Below, piece by piece: positions 1 to 5,287 of a stretch of DNA of 5,287 nt. Below the pieces are notes generated by a model that saw only the letters and a program-made list of their open reading frames with translations, had not been told where the DNA came from and ran no database searches. The stretch is from a virus (lineage: Duplodnaviria > Heunggongvirae > Uroviricota > Caudoviricetes): IMG/VR virus record IMGVR_UViG_2693429774_000006. One strand, given 5' to 3'. Within the stretch, counting starts at the first letter, position 1, and the number at the start of each line of letters is the position of its first letter. A program made the translations under genes and the position numbers.

Positions 1-43
1 AACTCCGCAATGTGATTAAGTCCATTCAGGCGTTCACCGGGGC

Positions 44-244
44 TTAATGGAACAGTCGCCGCAGTGCCTTCAATAGCCATTTGTTCCCCCGTTTTTTCGT
101 AGATAGTTCTGCCAGCAATTCATCTTGTGAACGGCACGGATGCCAGCGTTTACCATCCTCCCCCATGATCCAGCCGTGACCGTAATGCATTGCCGGGCTT
201 TGTTTAACCAGCAGCGATGCAAATGATGGTTCTTTCGTCAGCAT
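44..244 (-). CDS. Small hypothetical phage early protein, immediately downstream of the cII-like gene on the minus strand
   Basis: ORF in the supplied track (44..274). I prefer the internal ATG at 244 because it is preceded by GAGGTG about 4 nt upstream, whereas 274 is a GTG start overlapping the cII-like gene by 23 nt. Same strand and position as the early-operon genes that follow cII in 186-type phages. No recognisable domain; product unknown. Confidence 0.45.
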   Translation of the reverse strand: MLTKEPSFASLLVKQSPAMHYGHGWIMGEDGKRWHPCRSQDELLAELSTKKRGNKWLLKALRRLFH

Positions 245-251
245 AAGCACC

Positions 252-761
252 TCACAGCAAACCAAATGAAGCACCGAGGCCAGTCACGGTATCAACTGCA
301 CTCGCCATCGCAGGATTAGCCTGTAAACGGGCCTGCAATGAAACAGCCGCCAGCGCCATCAGTCGTGTTACAGAATTAATGCTGCTGATAGCATCACGAC
401 GACCGGCACAGGTTTTTACATCGCCAGACACCGCACCTGCAGCAACACGCCCGATCTCTGCGGTTGCACTCATGACGTAATGTGGCAGTTTCTCTTTTGC
501 CACCTCATTAATCGGAACACATGGCAGACAATGAATCTGTGCCAGAAAACCGTCTACCAACGTTGAATCTTCAGTCAGATCGGTAAGCAACCAGATTTCT
601 GGTGCGGTGAGCTGATGCGGTTGATCTGGATTGAGTTTGTTTCGCAGTGTCTGAACATTCATTCCTGCACGTTCTGCCAGCTTTGCCATATTGTGACGTA
701 GTGCAAAAGCTCTACAGGCTTCATCAAAATGCGGATGTTTGGAAATCTTGTAATCAAACAT
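252..761 (-). CDS. cII: Phage CII-like transcriptional regulator (186 CII / CP76-type)
   Basis: 169-aa ORF with start preceded by AGGGGG about 6 nt upstream. Length matches 186 CII as I recall it (169 aa), and it sits immediately downstream of the Cox/Apl-like gene in a 186-type early operon. Family assignment is from memory, not a search. Confidence 0.75.
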   Translation of the reverse strand: MFDYKISKHPHFDEACRAFALRHNMAKLAERAGMNVQTLRNKLNPDQPHQLTAPEIWLLTDLTEDSTLVDGFLAQIHCLPCVPINEVAKEKLPHYVMSATAEIGRVAAGAVSGDVKTCAGRRDAISSINSVTRLMALAAVSLQARLQANPAMASAVDTVTGLGASFGLL

Positions 762-793
762 GCTGCCCCCTTAGAAAGTTCTCATAATTGAAC

Positions 794-1042
794 TTAGTCA
801 CCAACGATGACATTAAAGTTGAAATTGGATTGGCCCATGTTTTTCCTGACTTGTTCCTTTTTGTACTCAAGGTAACGTATACATACTCTGTCTTTCGATT
901 TTTCTTTTCTTTCCAAGAATTTAGCGAGTTTACCATTATGAATCATTTGATATACCGAACCGCGAGAGCGGCCTTCCCATTCCGCGAACTCAGCTGGTGT
1001 CGCCATCACTTTTGGTACACGAATTGAAATGTCGTTGCTCAT
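794..1042 (-). CDS. Cox/Apl-like excisionase and early-promoter regulator (small HTH protein)
   Basis: 82-aa ORF. The segment VMATPAEFAEWEGRSRGSVYQMIHNGKLA resembles the P2 Cox N-terminal HTH region as I remember it (…AIPYQEFAKLIGKSTGAVRRMIDKGKLP…). It is divergently transcribed from the CI-like repressor and is the first gene of the rightward-type operon, as apl is in 186 and cox in P2. Confidence 0.7.
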   Translation of the reverse strand: MSNDISIRVPKVMATPAEFAEWEGRSRGSVYQMIHNGKLAKFLERKEKSKDRVCIRYLEYKKEQVRKNMGQSNFNFNVIVGD

Positions 1043-1161
1043 AGTGCAGTATCTCTCGATTAAGGTTTGGTTTACGTCGTTTTATCTTGTTTTATTTGAT
1101 TCAATATTTGATACACCAAGATACTACGATCCAATATTTGATACGTCAACAGGATTAAAAA
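1043..1161. promoter_or_regulatory. Divergent lysis/lysogeny switch region (pR/pL-type promoters and operators) between the Cox/Apl-like and CI-like genes
   Basis: 119-bp AT-rich intergenic region between divergent genes. It contains the 13-bp direct repeat CAATATTTGATAC at 1102..1114 and 1132..1144, and ATTTGAT also at 1094..1100. AGGA lies about 7 nt upstream of the cI ATG. Exact -35/-10 elements could not be assigned confidently by eye. Confidence 0.5.
1102..1144. repeat. Two copies of the 13-bp direct repeat CAATATTTGATAC, 30 bp centre to centre, in the switch region; candidate operator sites
   Basis: Exact match seen directly in the sequence at 1102..1114 and 1132..1144. Confidence 0.6.
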
Positions 1162-1794
1162 ATGATACAAGTAAAAGCTGGCGAGAATACAGGGGGAAGA
1201 GAGGCTATCCATAGGCTAATGGCAGCCTATGATTTCAAGTCCAGACAGCAACTTTGCGATCACTTGGGCGCATCAAAAAGCACTATGGCAAACAGATACT
1301 TAAGAGATAGTTTTCCTGCAGAATGGGTGATTCAGTGCGCTTTGGAAACAGGAGTTTCTTTACTGTGGCTAACTACCGGACAGGGCGATCCAGGTTCAAA
1401 CATTGACCCTAAAAAAAATATCAATTCCGTGAACTCTAGCAAAGTTAAACCTCTTTCGGAGCTTGTATCTCCTGAAATTGACAAGGCAACTCTCAACGGA
1501 GGTTTGCTGATCGATGCTGGAAAAGCAATCATTGATAGCAGCATACTCCCCTCAGACTCAAGCAACCTGCTGCTGGTGACTACTTCTGGTGATTCTTATT
1601 TAATAGATCGCAACCAAACACCACCAGTAAATGGTACGTGGTTAGTGGACATCGACGGGATAAAAAGCATTGTAAAATTGACACGACTCCCGGGAAACAG
1701 ATTAGTAGTGCATCAGGATGATTCATCGTTTGAGTGCGAACTGGATGACATTGAGGTAATAGGCCGCGCACTGAAAATCATTAAGAGCCTTTGA
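1162..1794 (+). CDS. cI: CI-type prophage repressor (186 CI-like N-terminal HTH domain, with an S24/LexA-like signature in the C-terminal part)
   Basis: 210-aa ORF. The N-terminal segment …RYLRDSFPAEWVIQCALETGVSLLWLTTGQG resembles the 186 CI HTH domain as I recall it. The C-terminal part contains GDSY (Ser145) and VKLTRLPGN (Lys172), resembling the Ser/Lys motifs of LexA and UmuD. Its stop TGA (1792..1794) lies 1 nt before the integrase ATG. Confidence 0.85.
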   Translation: MIQVKAGENTGGREAIHRLMAAYDFKSRQQLCDHLGASKSTMANRYLRDSFPAEWVIQCALETGVSLLWLTTGQGDPGSNIDPKKNINSVNSSKVKPLSELVSPEIDKATLNGGLLIDAGKAIIDSSILPSDSSNLLLVTTSGDSYLIDRNQTPPVNGTWLVDIDGIKSIVKLTRLPGNRLVVHQDDSSFECELDDIEVIGRALKIIKSL

Positions 1795-1795
1795 T

Positions 1796-2809
1796 ATGAC
1801 CATCAGAAAACAGCCGAACGGAAAGTGGTTATGTGAATGCTACCCAAACGGGCGAGATGGCAAACGCGTACGCAAACAATTTGCGACGAAAGGCGAAGCC
1901 ATTGCGTTTGAGAATTTCACCATGGACGAGGTAAACAAGAAACCTTGGCTGGGAGAAAAGGAAGATCGGCGACACCTATCAGAATTAATTGAGCTGTGGT
2001 ATTCCCTGTATGGTCAAACACTCGCAGACCCCAAGCGACTCATGGCGAAACTTGGAATTATCTGTAATGGTCTGGGCGATCCCATCGCTTCAGAGCTGAC
2101 TGCCGGTGACTTTACGAAATACCGCGAAGCACGGCTAAAAGGTGAAGTGCGAAATGAAGATGGCACGCTGATGTCGCCCGTTAAGCCCCGCACGGTAAAC
2201 CTTGAACAGCGCAATCTATCATCTGTGTTCGGTACATTAAAAAAACTAGGACACTGGTCAGCACCAAACCCGCTGGCAGGACTTCCGACCTTCAAAATTG
2301 CCGAAGGTGAGCTGGCTTTTCTTTCCACGGACGAAATCAAGCGCCTGTTGGCGGCATGTGCTGAATCTCAAAGCCCTAGCTTACTAATGATTGCAAAAAT
2401 ATGTCTGGCTACTGGCGCACGGTGGAGTGAAGCCGAAAATCTGCAGGGCCATCAAATATCGAAATACCGAATTACTTATACAAAAACAAAAGGCAAGAAA
2501 AACCGTACTGTGCCGATATCTCAGGATCTGTATGATGAACTCCCCAAAAACAGAGGAAAGTTATTCACGCCATGCAGAAAAGCCTTTGAGCGGGCAGTAA
2601 AGCGGGCCGGTATTGACCTACCGGAGGGCCAATGCACCCACGTGCTTCGCCATACATTCGCCAGTCACTTTATGATGAACGGCGGAAACATACTGGTACT
2701 GCGTGATATTTTGGGTCATGCCGATATAAAAATGACCATGATTTACGCCCACTTTTCGCCCGATCACCTTGAAGACGCGGTGACTAAAAATCCTCTTTAT
2801 AATTTGTAG
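1796..2809 (+). CDS. int: P2/186-family tyrosine integrase (site-specific recombinase)
   Basis: 337-aa ORF, the same length as P2 Int as I recall it. N-terminus MTIRKQPNGKWLCECYPNGRDGKRVRKQFATKGEAIAFE parallels P2 Int MAIKKLDDGRYEVDIRPTGRNGKRIRRKFDKKSEAVAFE. C-terminal catalytic signature is present: ATGARWSEA, HVLRHTFASHF (HxxR) and MIYAHF (Tyr nucleophile). Tightly coupled downstream of cI. Confidence 0.92.
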   Translation: MTIRKQPNGKWLCECYPNGRDGKRVRKQFATKGEAIAFENFTMDEVNKKPWLGEKEDRRHLSELIELWYSLYGQTLADPKRLMAKLGIICNGLGDPIASELTAGDFTKYREARLKGEVRNEDGTLMSPVKPRTVNLEQRNLSSVFGTLKKLGHWSAPNPLAGLPTFKIAEGELAFLSTDEIKRLLAACAESQSPSLLMIAKICLATGARWSEAENLQGHQISKYRITYTKTKGKKNRTVPISQDLYDELPKNRGKLFTPCRKAFERAVKRAGIDLPEGQCTHVLRHTFASHFMMNGGNILVLRDILGHADIKMTMIYAHFSPDHLEDAVTKNPLYNL

Positions 2810-2821
2810 TGGAGACCTATT

Positions 2822-4342
2822 GTGATTCAAAAATTAGATATTCAATCTGATGCGGTTGCAAAGTTAAGAATGGATGCTATTCGTTCAGAAATCCAAGGTT
2901 ATTCCCCTGATTTATTTATCGAATTCTGTATGCAATATAACTTACAAAAATTTGAAGATAATATCCACATGTTACGACACATGCCTTGGATTGTTAATTT
3001 ATGTCTAAAGTGGTCTGCGTCAGTAACTGGCAAGAATAAAAAATTCAAAATCCTCGATAAAAATCAAGCAATAAAACTCTTCCAAAAAACTTATGAAACC
3101 TTGAACATTATTCCTATCGGTCTTGAGAGGAAGAATGGCATGCATTTCTTCATTAGAAATAATCTATACCAACAAGGAATCTACCAGAAAATTGACGCTC
3201 TAAACACAATTAGCAGACAAGTCTTTCTATTTTCAGAACTTGAAAAAAACCATAAAATAAAGAAAAGTTTTTTTACTATCACGAATGTATCTATCGAAGA
3301 CTTTCTTAAGCTATCTTACATATTAATAACTCACATAACAGAAGAGCATCCCGTGAGAAAAATGAATGTAGATACATTTACTATATTATTTGACATCATT
3401 CCTAGAAATACCATTGAGAAATTTCTTGATGCAATATCAATAAATTACAATGAACTATCTACATTTTGCAAATCAAAAACCTATGATAAACCTTTGCTTG
3501 AATACTACTCATCATCACCTTTTCTTGAAAAACCATTAATAAAAAAAGGTTCAGAGTATTTTCAGATACACACACAACTGACTTCAACAAGCATACAGAC
3601 GTTCATATATGATCTTTTAAGAAGAACTGATGCCGAGAAGTTCATGGATAGCTTTGGAAATGTATTTGAAAATGCACTGGAATTAATACTAAAAGAAAGC
3701 GAAATTGATTTTCATAACGAAAAATACCTTAAAGAACGACTACCTAAAGATAATAAAGTAGTTGATTATTTCATTCCACATACTGAGGCAAATATTTTCA
3801 TTGATGCTAAAGGCGTTGAGATACACCAAAAAGGCATGGTAACATTACGCCCTGAGGATATTGCAGGAAAAATAAAGAAATCGGTATTAAAAGCAATCGA
3901 ACAATCTCACGAAGTTAATCGAGAAATATACTCTAATGAGCGAATAATAGCTCCATTCAGGGCTAACTCATATATCATTTGCATTACATATAAAAACCTT
4001 TTCTTAGGCAATGGTAGTATCCTAGCTAATACTTATGCTAAAGATGAGATGAATAAGATATATGACAAGTTTAAACATAACTATCATATCCCTACAGAGA
4101 ATATTTTTTGTCTATCATTTGAAGAGTTTGAATATCTCATTGCATCATGCAAAAGGTTTAAAATTCCGCCTCATGAAGTCTTGCAATCTGCAGTTGAAAA
4201 GAACAAAAAACCATCAAGTGCTGCTTTCCTATTTTCCCACCATATAGAGGACTATTTTGATAGAGTAGTCAATTCAGTCATAGTCAATGAGGCAGGCATT
4301 AAAATGGTAGATTCTATTATCAATAAATTAAAGCCTGAATAA
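2822..4342 (+). CDS. Large hypothetical cargo protein (506 aa) between the integrase and the attachment site; candidate defence or lysogenic-conversion protein with a putative PD-(D/E)xK-like nuclease motif
   Basis: Uninterrupted 1521-nt ORF with GTG start at 2822 and GGAG at 2811..2814; it begins 12 nt after the integrase stop. Strongly AT-rich: hand counts of sampled 60-nt lines give about 23-35% G+C, against about 62% in a sampled integrase line. The AT richness makes long chance ORFs unlikely, since random AT-rich sequence is stop-codon-rich. Motif E283 (FENALELIL), D315 (VVDYFIP) and D328-A-K330 (IFIDAKG) has PD-(D/E)xK-like spacing. No Walker A motif and no family I recognise. Confidence 0.85.
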   Translation: MIQKLDIQSDAVAKLRMDAIRSEIQGYSPDLFIEFCMQYNLQKFEDNIHMLRHMPWIVNLCLKWSASVTGKNKKFKILDKNQAIKLFQKTYETLNIIPIGLERKNGMHFFIRNNLYQQGIYQKIDALNTISRQVFLFSELEKNHKIKKSFFTITNVSIEDFLKLSYILITHITEEHPVRKMNVDTFTILFDIIPRNTIEKFLDAISINYNELSTFCKSKTYDKPLLEYYSSSPFLEKPLIKKGSEYFQIHTQLTSTSIQTFIYDLLRRTDAEKFMDSFGNVFENALELILKESEIDFHNEKYLKERLPKDNKVVDYFIPHTEANIFIDAKGVEIHQKGMVTLRPEDIAGKIKKSVLKAIEQSHEVNREIYSNERIIAPFRANSYIICITYKNLFLGNGSILANTYAKDEMNKIYDKFKHNYHIPTENIFCLSFEEFEYLIASCKRFKIPPHEVLQSAVEKNKKPSSAAFLFSHHIEDYFDRVVNSVIVNEAGIKMVDSIINKLKPE

Positions 4343-4474
4343 GTCTCCCAAGCAAAACCAGTGGCGGCATTTTGGCGGCAGAGCATTAAAAATGCGTAAA
4401 ACAGACAAACACAAAATAATACTAACACACTGATTTTAAACATAAGTTCATGTTTTTGTTATAGTAAAAATGGT

Positions 4475-4519
4475 ATGTAGGAATTTCGGACGCGGGTTCA
4501 ACTCCCGCCAGCTCCACCA
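4475..4519 (+). other. Partial copy of the 3-prime end of tmRNA (ssrA), about 45 nt ending in CCA; att core repeat at the prophage/island junction
   Basis: ATGTAGGAATTTCGGACGCGGGTTCAACTCCCGCCAGCTCCACCA matches the 3-prime terminus (T-arm and acceptor stem) of enterobacterial ssrA as I recall it. Sequence upstream of 4475 has no resemblance to the 5-prime part of ssrA, so this is a fragment, not a full gene. Confidence 0.8.
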
Positions 4520-4554
4520 ATTTTTGATATATTGAAGTTCAGTGAAGTCTATCA

Positions 4555-4587
4555 AGCCCGCATGGAACCAGCCTTGCGGGCTTTTTT
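4555..4587 (+). terminator. Rho-independent terminator-like hairpin with T-run, downstream of the ssrA 3-prime fragment
   Basis: AGCCCGCA (4555..4562) pairs perfectly with TGCGGGCT (4575..4582) across a 12-nt loop, followed by TTTTTT (4582..4587). Confidence 0.6.
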
Positions 4588-4641
4588 ACGTCTATAGTAG
4601 TCTACCGAGAATTGCTAGAATCTACTCGTTATGGCACCCTT

Positions 4642-4688
4642 TTTGGGACCCAACACAAAGGGTCCAAAACATGAGGGTCCCAAACATG
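4642..4688. repeat. 10-bp perfect inverted repeat (TTTGGGACCC at 4642..4651 and GGGTCCCAAA at 4675..4684) plus a 15-bp tandem imperfect repeat (4659..4673 and 4674..4688) overlapping the P4-type integrase start
   Basis: Seen directly in the sequence. The tandem units AGGGTCCAAAACATG and AGGGTCCCAAACATG differ at one position and each ends in an in-frame ATG. Confidence 0.6.
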
Positions 4689-5258
4689 GCAAAAATCGCT
4701 AAGAAGCTCACTGACACTGAAATCAAAAGCACCAAACCTGCCGAGAAAGAGGTTAACCTTTTTGACGGCGATGGTTTGCTCCTGCGAATCGCCCCCTTAG
4801 CGAAGGGAGGAAAGAAAAATTGGTATTTCAGATATGCAGTGCCTGTGACCAAAAAGCGAACTAAGGTGAGCTTAGGAACCTATCCTCACCTTACACTTGC
4901 GAAGGCACGAGCTTTACGTGATGAGTACTTGTCGTTGCTTGCAAATGGTATAGACCCACAAGTTCATAACACCCACAAAGCCAATGCCCTTAAGGATGCA
5001 ACGGAACATACATTTCAAGCAGTAGCCAAGAAGTGGCTTGATGAGAAAGTCAAAACGTCAGGCATCTCCCAGGATCATGCTAACGACATCTGGCGAAGCC
5101 TAGAGAGAAATATCTTTCCAACGTTGGGTGATACCCCCATTAAGGAGATTCGCCCTAAAATGCTTAAACAGCATTTAGACCCCATAGAAAAACGAGGTGT
5201 CCTTGAAACACTTCGCCGCGTCATTGATCCTACCCACGTAATATGGACACAGGCCTAA
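4686..5258 (+). CDS. P4-type (CP4-57 IntA-like) integrase, N-terminal arm-type DNA-binding and SAM-like region only; apparently truncated
   Basis: Translation from the ATG at 4686 (MAKIAKKLTDTEIKSTKPAEKEVNLFDGDGLLLRIAP…WYFRYAVPVTKKRTKVSLGTYP…DIWRSLERNIFP…) matches the conserved N-terminal pattern of P4-family integrases as I recall them. Start is preceded by GAGGG; an alternative in-frame ATG lies at 4671. The frame ends at a stop at 5256..5258 after about 190 codons, and the other two forward frames also hit stops nearby. The longer 4542 start in the track runs across the terminator and is rejected. Confidence 0.7.
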   Translation: MAKIAKKLTDTEIKSTKPAEKEVNLFDGDGLLLRIAPLAKGGKKNWYFRYAVPVTKKRTKVSLGTYPHLTLAKARALRDEYLSLLANGIDPQVHNTHKANALKDATEHTFQAVAKKWLDEKVKTSGISQDHANDIWRSLERNIFPTLGDTPIKEIRPKMLKQHLDPIEKRGVLETLRRVIDPTHVIWTQA

Positions 5259-5287
5259 GCGAGGTTCTTGTTTTCAAATTGTTCCGG

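Follow-up and report, generated by a model that had tools for sequence, protein, structure and literature searches.

The junction of a 186/Fels-2-type prophage and a P4-type island at ssrA: a probable attR built on a displaced tmRNA gene end

The 343-nt non-coding stretch at 4343-4685 of the window (the whole stretch of 5,287 nucleotides analysed, IMG/VR record IMGVR_UViG_2693429774_000006), which separates a 506-aa cargo open reading frame from a second integrase gene starting at 4686, is very probably the attR of a 186/Fels-2-type P2-like prophage (Peduoviridae) integrated in ssrA, beside a pre-existing and decayed P4-type (CP4-57-like) island. The tandem arrangement at ssrA is already well documented, and its kind, its mechanism, and this particular phage are all in public records; the value of the locus is mainly for annotation, with the prophage boundary placed at 4474/4520 and 4521-4685 assigned to the neighbouring island. 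It is also a clean example of ssrA collecting mobile elements, here a complete P2-like phage with a GapS1 anti-phage gene stacked on an island with an IS3-inactivated integrase (Table 1).

We envisage the following sequence of events. In the attP of the circular phage, a 46-bp copy of the ssrA 3′ end would be preceded by two 186-type arm repeats and an A/T-rich spacer and followed by a terminator hairpin and a second pair of arm repeats; the N-terminal domain of Int would bind the TGGCGRCA arm repeats and its central and catalytic domains the core, probably with assistance from IHF; and recombination by Int would then join attP to chromosomal ssrA across the 46 bp in which they are identical. 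The predicted products are an attL in which a complete ssrA has been rebuilt with its last 46 nt and terminator derived from the phage, and an attR to which the original ssrA 3′ end would have been moved by about 33 kb, still attached to its former downstream neighbour, in this case the leader, terminator, and integrase gene of a P4-type island.

Table 1. Features of the window, with coordinates, strand, and the basis for each assignment
Feature	Position	Strand	Basis
Fil (phage 186 filamentation protein) gene	44..274	-	Pfam Phage_186_Fil, 85 bits
CII-type regulator gene of 186-like prophage	252..761	-	Pfam Phage_CP76, 151 bits
Apl/Cox-like excisionase and repressor gene	794..1042	-	PHROG 6912 excisionase, 2.2e-32; PHROG 575 Cox-like excisionase, 9.5e-24
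CI repressor gene	1162..1794	+	Pfam Phage_CI_repr and Phage_CI_C
Prophage 186-type tyrosine integrase gene, 337 aa, intact	1796..2809	+	Pfam Int_N and Phage_integrase; PHROG 1 integrase
Cargo gene, GapS1-family anti-phage protein, 506 aa	2822..4342	+	NCBIfam NF047931 antiphage_GapS1, 428.5 bits (cutoff 320)
Phage attP P arm, now the phage half of attR	4343..4474	+	Alignment of five attPs; phage BLAST
Two direct TGGCGGCA repeats, 11 bp apart	4362..4380	+	Conservation in five phages; paired pattern; 186-type consensus
IHF-consensus match (AATCAGTGTGTTA) between arm sites and core, weak candidate	4423..4435	-	Pattern scan
Displaced ssrA 3′ fragment, att core: 45 nt through CCA plus one A	4475..4520	+	Exact 46-bp repeat; partial Rfam tmRNA match
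Left arm and leader of P4-type island	4521..4685	+	Same segment and integrase after ssrA in other genera
Rho-independent terminator hairpin	4554..4587	+	Inverted repeat I5 followed by T run
GGGTCC(C)AAA repeats: inverted 4643-4651, direct 4659-4673 and 4674-4688	4643..4688	+	Repeats D1, I2, I12
P4-type (IntA-like) integrase gene, N-terminal 180 codons, truncated	4686..5224	+	Pfam Arm-DNA-bind_3 and Phage_int_M
End of IS3 copy within P4-type integrase gene	5225..5287	+	Homology break; IS3-family matches

Two copies of the ssrA 3′ end

Nucleotides 4475-4519 are identical to the final 45 nt (ATGTAGGAATTTCGGACGCGGGTTCAACTCCCGCCAGCTCCACCA) of the annotated 363-nt ssrA gene of E. coli FJ_Ec_21, as a first-pass annotation of this DNA had claimed; the identity extends one base further rightward (A, 4520) and 0 nt leftward, in agreement with the same annotation's view that the DNA upstream of 4475 is unrelated to ssrA. 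The Rfam tmRNA model (RF00023) scores 30.5 bits on the window, below its gathering score of 47, and aligns only the T-arm and acceptor 3′ end at high posterior probability, while the number of tmRNA genes that ARAGORN reports in the window is 0; because the Rfam match is partial and sub-gathering and ARAGORN finds no gene, 4475-4519 is a fragment rather than a gene. A second tmRNA gene or a pseudogene duplication was rejected on the same two grounds and on the exact repeat in FJ_Ec_21. A displaced core accounts for the presence of a tmRNA-like fragment within an intergenic region.

The window stops short of the far end of the prophage, and attL is known from close relatives. FJ_Ec_21, the closest complete genome, matches window 1-5224 at 99.7%, and its gene order is smpB, complete ssrA, a P2-like prophage of 32.8 kb, the 46-bp fragment, and a P4-type integrase island. 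The prophage has the full P2-type gene set (ogr, D, tail, capsid, terminase, portal, replication, switch, int, and gapS1), and past the 46-bp fragment come an intact 409-aa P4-type integrase gene and then recombinase, ParB, and RelA/SpoT genes. It had been predicted from the window that a complete ssrA would lie at the far prophage end, and proposed that a second copy of the core be sought there. Both are found in FJ_Ec_21, where an exact 46-bp direct repeat, its copies 32,849 bp apart, occupies the two prophage ends, with ssrA complete at attL and a co-oriented fragment at attR, the direct-repeat pattern of a tDNA-integrated prophage.

A comparison with prophage-free strains, also proposed at that stage, was made with an empty-site query, a 500-nt chimera in which 200 nt of ssrA and the core precede 255 nt of island flank. 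The chimera is contiguous at 100% identity in some genomes, ML35 for example, and is found at a coverage of at least 80% in 967 of 5426 genomes, so that ssrA abuts the same island flank and integrase in strains that lack the prophage; ssrA joined directly to the island flank is the predicted pre-insertion allele. The phage-island junction (4343-4700) is present at a coverage of at least 80% in 64 genomes, and the P arm together with the core in 209. Yet another context is seen in strains XJW9B263 and MFDS1019527, where the same phage (20 mismatches over 4521 nt, 99.6% identity) is followed by ypjA and no island. Homology of these strains to the window ends at 4521, and because it ends there, where the phage abuts ypjA, the end of the phage must fall within the core; the DNA beyond the core is whatever came after ssrA in that host.

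The phage attachment site and the prophage genes

The first-pass annotation had taken 4343-4474 to be the phage attP arm, and from about 4359 this sequence is indeed conserved among related phages and contiguous with core and P′ arm in free phages; BLAST homology to phage genomes begins at window 4362 (query position 20). We rebuilt attP by joining the P arm and core of the window to the P′ arm taken from attL. The rebuilt site is contiguous, with both arms spanned, in Cartapus (90.6% over 288/307 nt) and in SEN8 and MLG42 (226 nt), and the Fels-2 record annotates the same attP. When the attPs of five phages are aligned, similarity starts at the first TGGCGGCA, upstream of which stands the stop codon of int or else a cargo gene.

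The two copies of TGGCGGCA noticed in the first reading are confirmed at 4362-4369 and 4373-4380, and the P′ arm holds a matching repeat pair, GTGGCGGCAAAATGGCGACAG, conserved in all five phages. Several observations support an arm-type role for these repeats: i) in the five-phage alignment the P arm reads rTGGCGrCA-N3-TGGCGGCA and the P′ arm GTGGCGGCA-N3-TGGCGrCA, and the four TGGCGRCA repeats have one orientation and fixed distances from the core in every phage of the five; ii) TGGCGRCA is observed 4 times in the window against 0.24 expected, a count reached by 0 of 200 shuffles, and the paired form TGGCGRCA-N3-TGGCGRCA occurs exactly 2 times in 49 kb of the reference locus, once per prophage end, against 0 expected; and iii) in 186-type phages the core is flanked on either side by two or more direct arm repeats, whose consensus is tgccGCCActt (Nilsson et al. 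2011, PMC3448106), and the reverse complement of this consensus, AAGTGGCGGCA, matches cAGTGGCGGCA here, the repeats being cAGTGGCGGCAtttTGGCGGCA in the P arm and GTGGCGGCAaaaTGGCGACA in the P′ arm, conserved in 5 phages. The TGGCGGCA pair is therefore a probable set of arm-type binding sites for the N-terminal domain of Int, a role that had been raised earlier as a possibility and that the 186-type consensus and five-phage conservation support well, with binding itself predicted from sequence comparison. Two further single copies of TGGCGRCA, at 998-1005 (minus strand) inside the apl-like gene and at 2349-2356 (plus strand) inside int, are unpaired and probably reflect chance. The candidate IHF site at 4423-4435 is only partly conserved in the attP alignment, and the 3 matches to the IHF consensus in the window, against 0.97 expected, are not significant alone.

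The first-pass annotation had placed the core between a P2/186-family prophage and a P4-type integrase, and the gene identities obtained with Pfam and PHROG agree. To the left of the junction lies a 186-type switch module with CI, Apl, CII, and Fil. MLG42, SEN8, and Fels-2 have homologues of the 794..1042 product under the annotation apl or excisionase, and this Apl/Cox-like protein is expected to be the directionality factor for attR/attL. The prophage integrase gene (1796-2809) is separated from attR by the cargo gene only. The integrase N-terminus contains W11-x2-E14-x-Y16, which in our own reading appears to fit the W/E/Y N-terminal signature of 186-type arm binders (PMC3448106). With int, the Apl-like gene, and the two cores all intact, excision appears feasible, and the prophage is probably inducible.

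The gene at 2822..4342 is labelled gapS1 in RefSeq genomes, and a search of its protein against PADLOC (2023) gave no matching model. SEN8, MLG42, and Fels-2 have no gene in the int-attP slot that it fills, and Cartapus has a RES-domain gene there; because the slot is empty or holds a RES-domain gene or gapS1 according to the phage, we regard it as a variable cargo hotspot. A 160-aa open reading frame at 39056-39538 of the FJ_Ec_21 locus, between ogr and ssrA on the P′ arm side by attL, is annotated as hypothetical in FJ_Ec_21 and as a putative exonuclease in Cartapus, is absent from SEN8 and Fels-2, and may mark a second variable cargo slot flanking attP. The phage is also found under another host name: 12 Klebsiella phage records (OK490395 and 11 similar, such as Kp4845-2; 35,561 bp) match window 1-4474 at 99.5% identity and stop exactly at 4474, which points either to a phage that crosses genera or to a doubtful host label.

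The neighbouring island, the junction, and the order of arrival

To see what lies to the right of the core in other bacteria, we scanned one genome per species with a pattern from the shared 3′ segment (4531-4558), which yielded 8 Enterobacterales loci. The segment adjoins ssrA in Leclercia, Enterobacter, Phytobacter, and other genera; at 5 of the 8 loci a full-length integrase with 98% identity to that of E. coli comes next, and the other 3 comprise a full-length Photorhabdus copy (89%), a Raoultella copy ended by the locus edge, and a disrupted copy in E. sichuanensis. Where the same phage abuts ypjA, the 4521-4685 segment is absent. Because the segment travels with the integrase across genera, it is the island's own arm and leader rather than core chromosome, and an island abutting the ssrA 3′ end without a prophage is found both in E. 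coli and in other genera. The 4686..5224 product matches residues 1-180 of the 409-aa integrase of FJ_Ec_21 at 100% identity, and this full-length homologue is 48.6% identical to K-12 IntA over 395 aa; the CP4-57-like layout beside ssrA that had been recognised in the first reading is borne out by this homology, by the Arm-DNA-bind_3 domain, and by the same position relative to ssrA.

The last of the GGGTCC(C)AAA repeats in the leader overlaps the ATG of the P4-type integrase gene, and the repeats are kept in the diverged leaders of the Raoultella (L010) and Photorhabdus (L014) loci. K-12 CP4-57 has a different motif at the same position, TAGGCCCA twice and an inverted copy. From their placement, we think that the GGGTCC(C)AAA repeats are probably arm-type or autoregulatory sites of the P4-type Int. 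The repeats at the int start co-vary with the integrase, GGGTCC(C)AAA here and TAGGCCCA-type in K-12 CP4-57.

The island looks degraded. Homology to genomes with an intact integrase ends at 5224/5225, after codon 180, and 5222-5287 matches features annotated IS3-like element IS3 family transposase in 3584 genomes; an IS3 insertion at this exact site was found in no genome of the collection. Because IS3 cuts its integrase, the island is immobile on its own in this strain. A search for a distal ssrA-core copy belonging to the island covered about 50 kb downstream in FJ_Ec_21 and gave nothing above 15 nt; the island accordingly appears old and fixed, and because a distal repeat is not recognisable within 50 kb, its status as a once-integrated element rests on its integrase, its position, and its spread across genera.

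Both elements bring a terminator to the site. The hairpin at 4554-4587 follows ssrA in prophage-free strains, where it would serve as the ssrA terminator, and in the window it stands behind the displaced fragment only; K-12 CP4-57 has an equivalent hairpin after ssrA. The phage P′ arm likewise has a conserved hairpin and T run (AAGGGGTTACGTGAAAACGTAGCCCCTTTTT), and because this hairpin directly follows CCA, the ssrA of the lysogen is both completed and terminated by phage DNA.

An arrangement of this kind raises the question of whether the junction doubles as a small RNA gene, in which a P-arm promoter would drive transcription through the ssrA fragment to the island terminator and produce a regulatory RNA of about 115 nt in an isrM-like position. 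We consider this unlikely, and each of the observations that suggest it has a counterweight: i) a promoter-like site with a TG-extended -10 at 4437-4465 faces the fragment, with a strong terminator at 4554-4587, but the promoter scan found 3 such sites against 1.3 expected, which is not significant; ii) a 119-nt segment folds better than 200/200 shuffles (z = -2.66), but the tRNA-like T-arm and the terminator account for this signal; and iii) the Rfam IsrM model (RF02763) aligns at both its ends to 4444-4587 (E = 2.9e-10), but with 44.8 bits against a gathering score of 376, using the first 21 and last ~60 model positions with the central 210 nt absent. Within that alignment the IsrM 3′ ~60 nt, including the terminator, are homologous to 4531-4587, and the match of the 5′ 21 nt to the phage arm (4444-4464) is weak; the IsrM-like 3′ part is generic, being the leader and terminator found ahead of this P4-type integrase family everywhere. 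If the junction RNA were real, it would be a hybrid of about 115 nt present only in strains with both elements, an E. coli positional counterpart of isrM, and IsrM-type small RNAs might then arise at the junctions of tandem elements in the ssrA array.

The leader variants of Raoultella (L010, 568-645) and Photorhabdus (L014, 2657-2734) equal the IsrM consensus over this 3′ part. The resemblance suggests that Salmonella isrM may itself sit at an analogous element junction in an ssrA array. No Salmonella enterica locus with the shared 3′ segment was among the 8 loci of the one-genome-per-species scan; an S. houtenae contig has ssrA, then an IS, and then iro genes.

We return to the reading of 4343-4685 as the attR of a prophage inserted beside an existing island, and to the order in which the two elements arrived. 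The first-pass annotation had proposed that the phage inserted between ssrA and an older island; the empty-site allele that this requires exists, and the order of arrival is strongly suggested by the comparisons rather than proven. In the opposite order, the phage would have lysogenised an island-free ssrA, and the island would later have entered the 46-nt fragment already displaced to attR, not the intact gene. Either order would leave one and the same sequence, both cores being the same 46 bp; island-free lysogens in which the phage abuts ypjA exist as possible recipients; and the P4-type island is mobile across genera, its 98% identical integrase lying by ssrA in Leclercia, Enterobacter, and Phytobacter. 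Nevertheless, an island directly against intact ssrA (967 genomes) outnumbers the phage-island junction (64 genomes) about 15-fold; the island shows decay in its IS3 insertions and missing distal repeat, in contrast to a prophage that is complete and has perfect repeats; and the 46-nt fragment may not hold every attB requirement of the island integrase. Integration normally targets an intact gene. Because the island-only allele is commoner, the island decayed, the prophage complete, and the intact gene the normal target, island first and phage second is the order we favour, and we judge the reverse to be very improbable.

That the junction is not real, the fragment being a chimera of the assembly or a resemblance by chance, can be dismissed with near certainty: an identical junction occurs in independent complete genomes (64 with at least 80% of 4343-4700), on which ground misassembly was rejected, the same architecture recurs with other phages in other taxa (L011 and L014, below), and a 45/45 match is far beyond chance.

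Comparison with known systems

The tandem layout recurs with different partners. An Enterobacteriaceae MAG (L011, ~5800-7040, minus strand) has the same layout with a different P2-type phage, whose int is 68.5% identical and whose arm repeats are TGTTARCCAT twice, not TGGCGGCA; an ssrA fragment of ~49 nt is followed by the same P4-type integrase. At a Photorhabdus locus (L014, ~1332-3735) a 28-nt ssrA fragment (GCGGGTTCAAC...CCA) marks the end of another element with an integrase, and a related P4-type integrase, 89% identical, comes next; the 28-nt length implies a different crossover sublocation in ssrA.

Among characterised phages, SopEPhi and Fels-2 integrate in ssrA (PMC3448106, citing Pelludat 2003). 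Fels-2/SopEPhi and the relatives SEN8, Cartapus, and MLG42 share with the present prophage the same core (the ssrA 3′ end) and the same int-CI-Apl-CII order. They also agree with it in how attP is laid out, each arm bearing a TGGCGRCA pair and CCA being followed by a terminator hairpin. The prophage described here differs from them in its host, E. coli, in an attP at ~82-90% nucleotide identity, and in its GapS1 cargo, which occupies the int-attP interval that is vacant in Fels-2, SEN8, and MLG42 and taken by the RES-domain gene in Cartapus. Coliphage 186 is alike in its arm repeats (consensus tgccGCCActt; here AGTGGCGGCA on the other strand), with two direct repeats per arm, in the W/E/Y signature of the Int N-terminus, and in a long core by which the target RNA gene is rebuilt, but its core-binding specificity differs.

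K-12 CP4-57 occupies the same chromosomal place, between ssrA and ypjA, and likewise has its P4-type integrase gene ~165-200 bp after the ssrA CCA, behind a terminator hairpin and short start-codon repeats. It differs from the island described here in its integrase (IntA, 48.6% identical), in its repeat (TAGGCCCA as against GGGTCCMAA), and in its cargo, which here (in FJ_Ec_21) consists of recombinase, ParB, and RelA/SpoT genes; the present island also has no distal repeat that could be found and an integrase cut by IS3.

A regenerated tDNA with a displaced fragment, including tandem arrays of such elements, is the standard signature of genomic islands, and the tmRNA gene is the most enriched integration target (Islander paper, PMC4383910). 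A strict Islander call at this locus would report the prophage only, because the distal element has lost its own displaced fragment. In other respects the locus resembles the tandem arrays of Islander/TIGER, with a regenerated tDNA, an integrase in each element, the newest element beside the intact gene, and a displaced tDNA fragment carried by the prophage.
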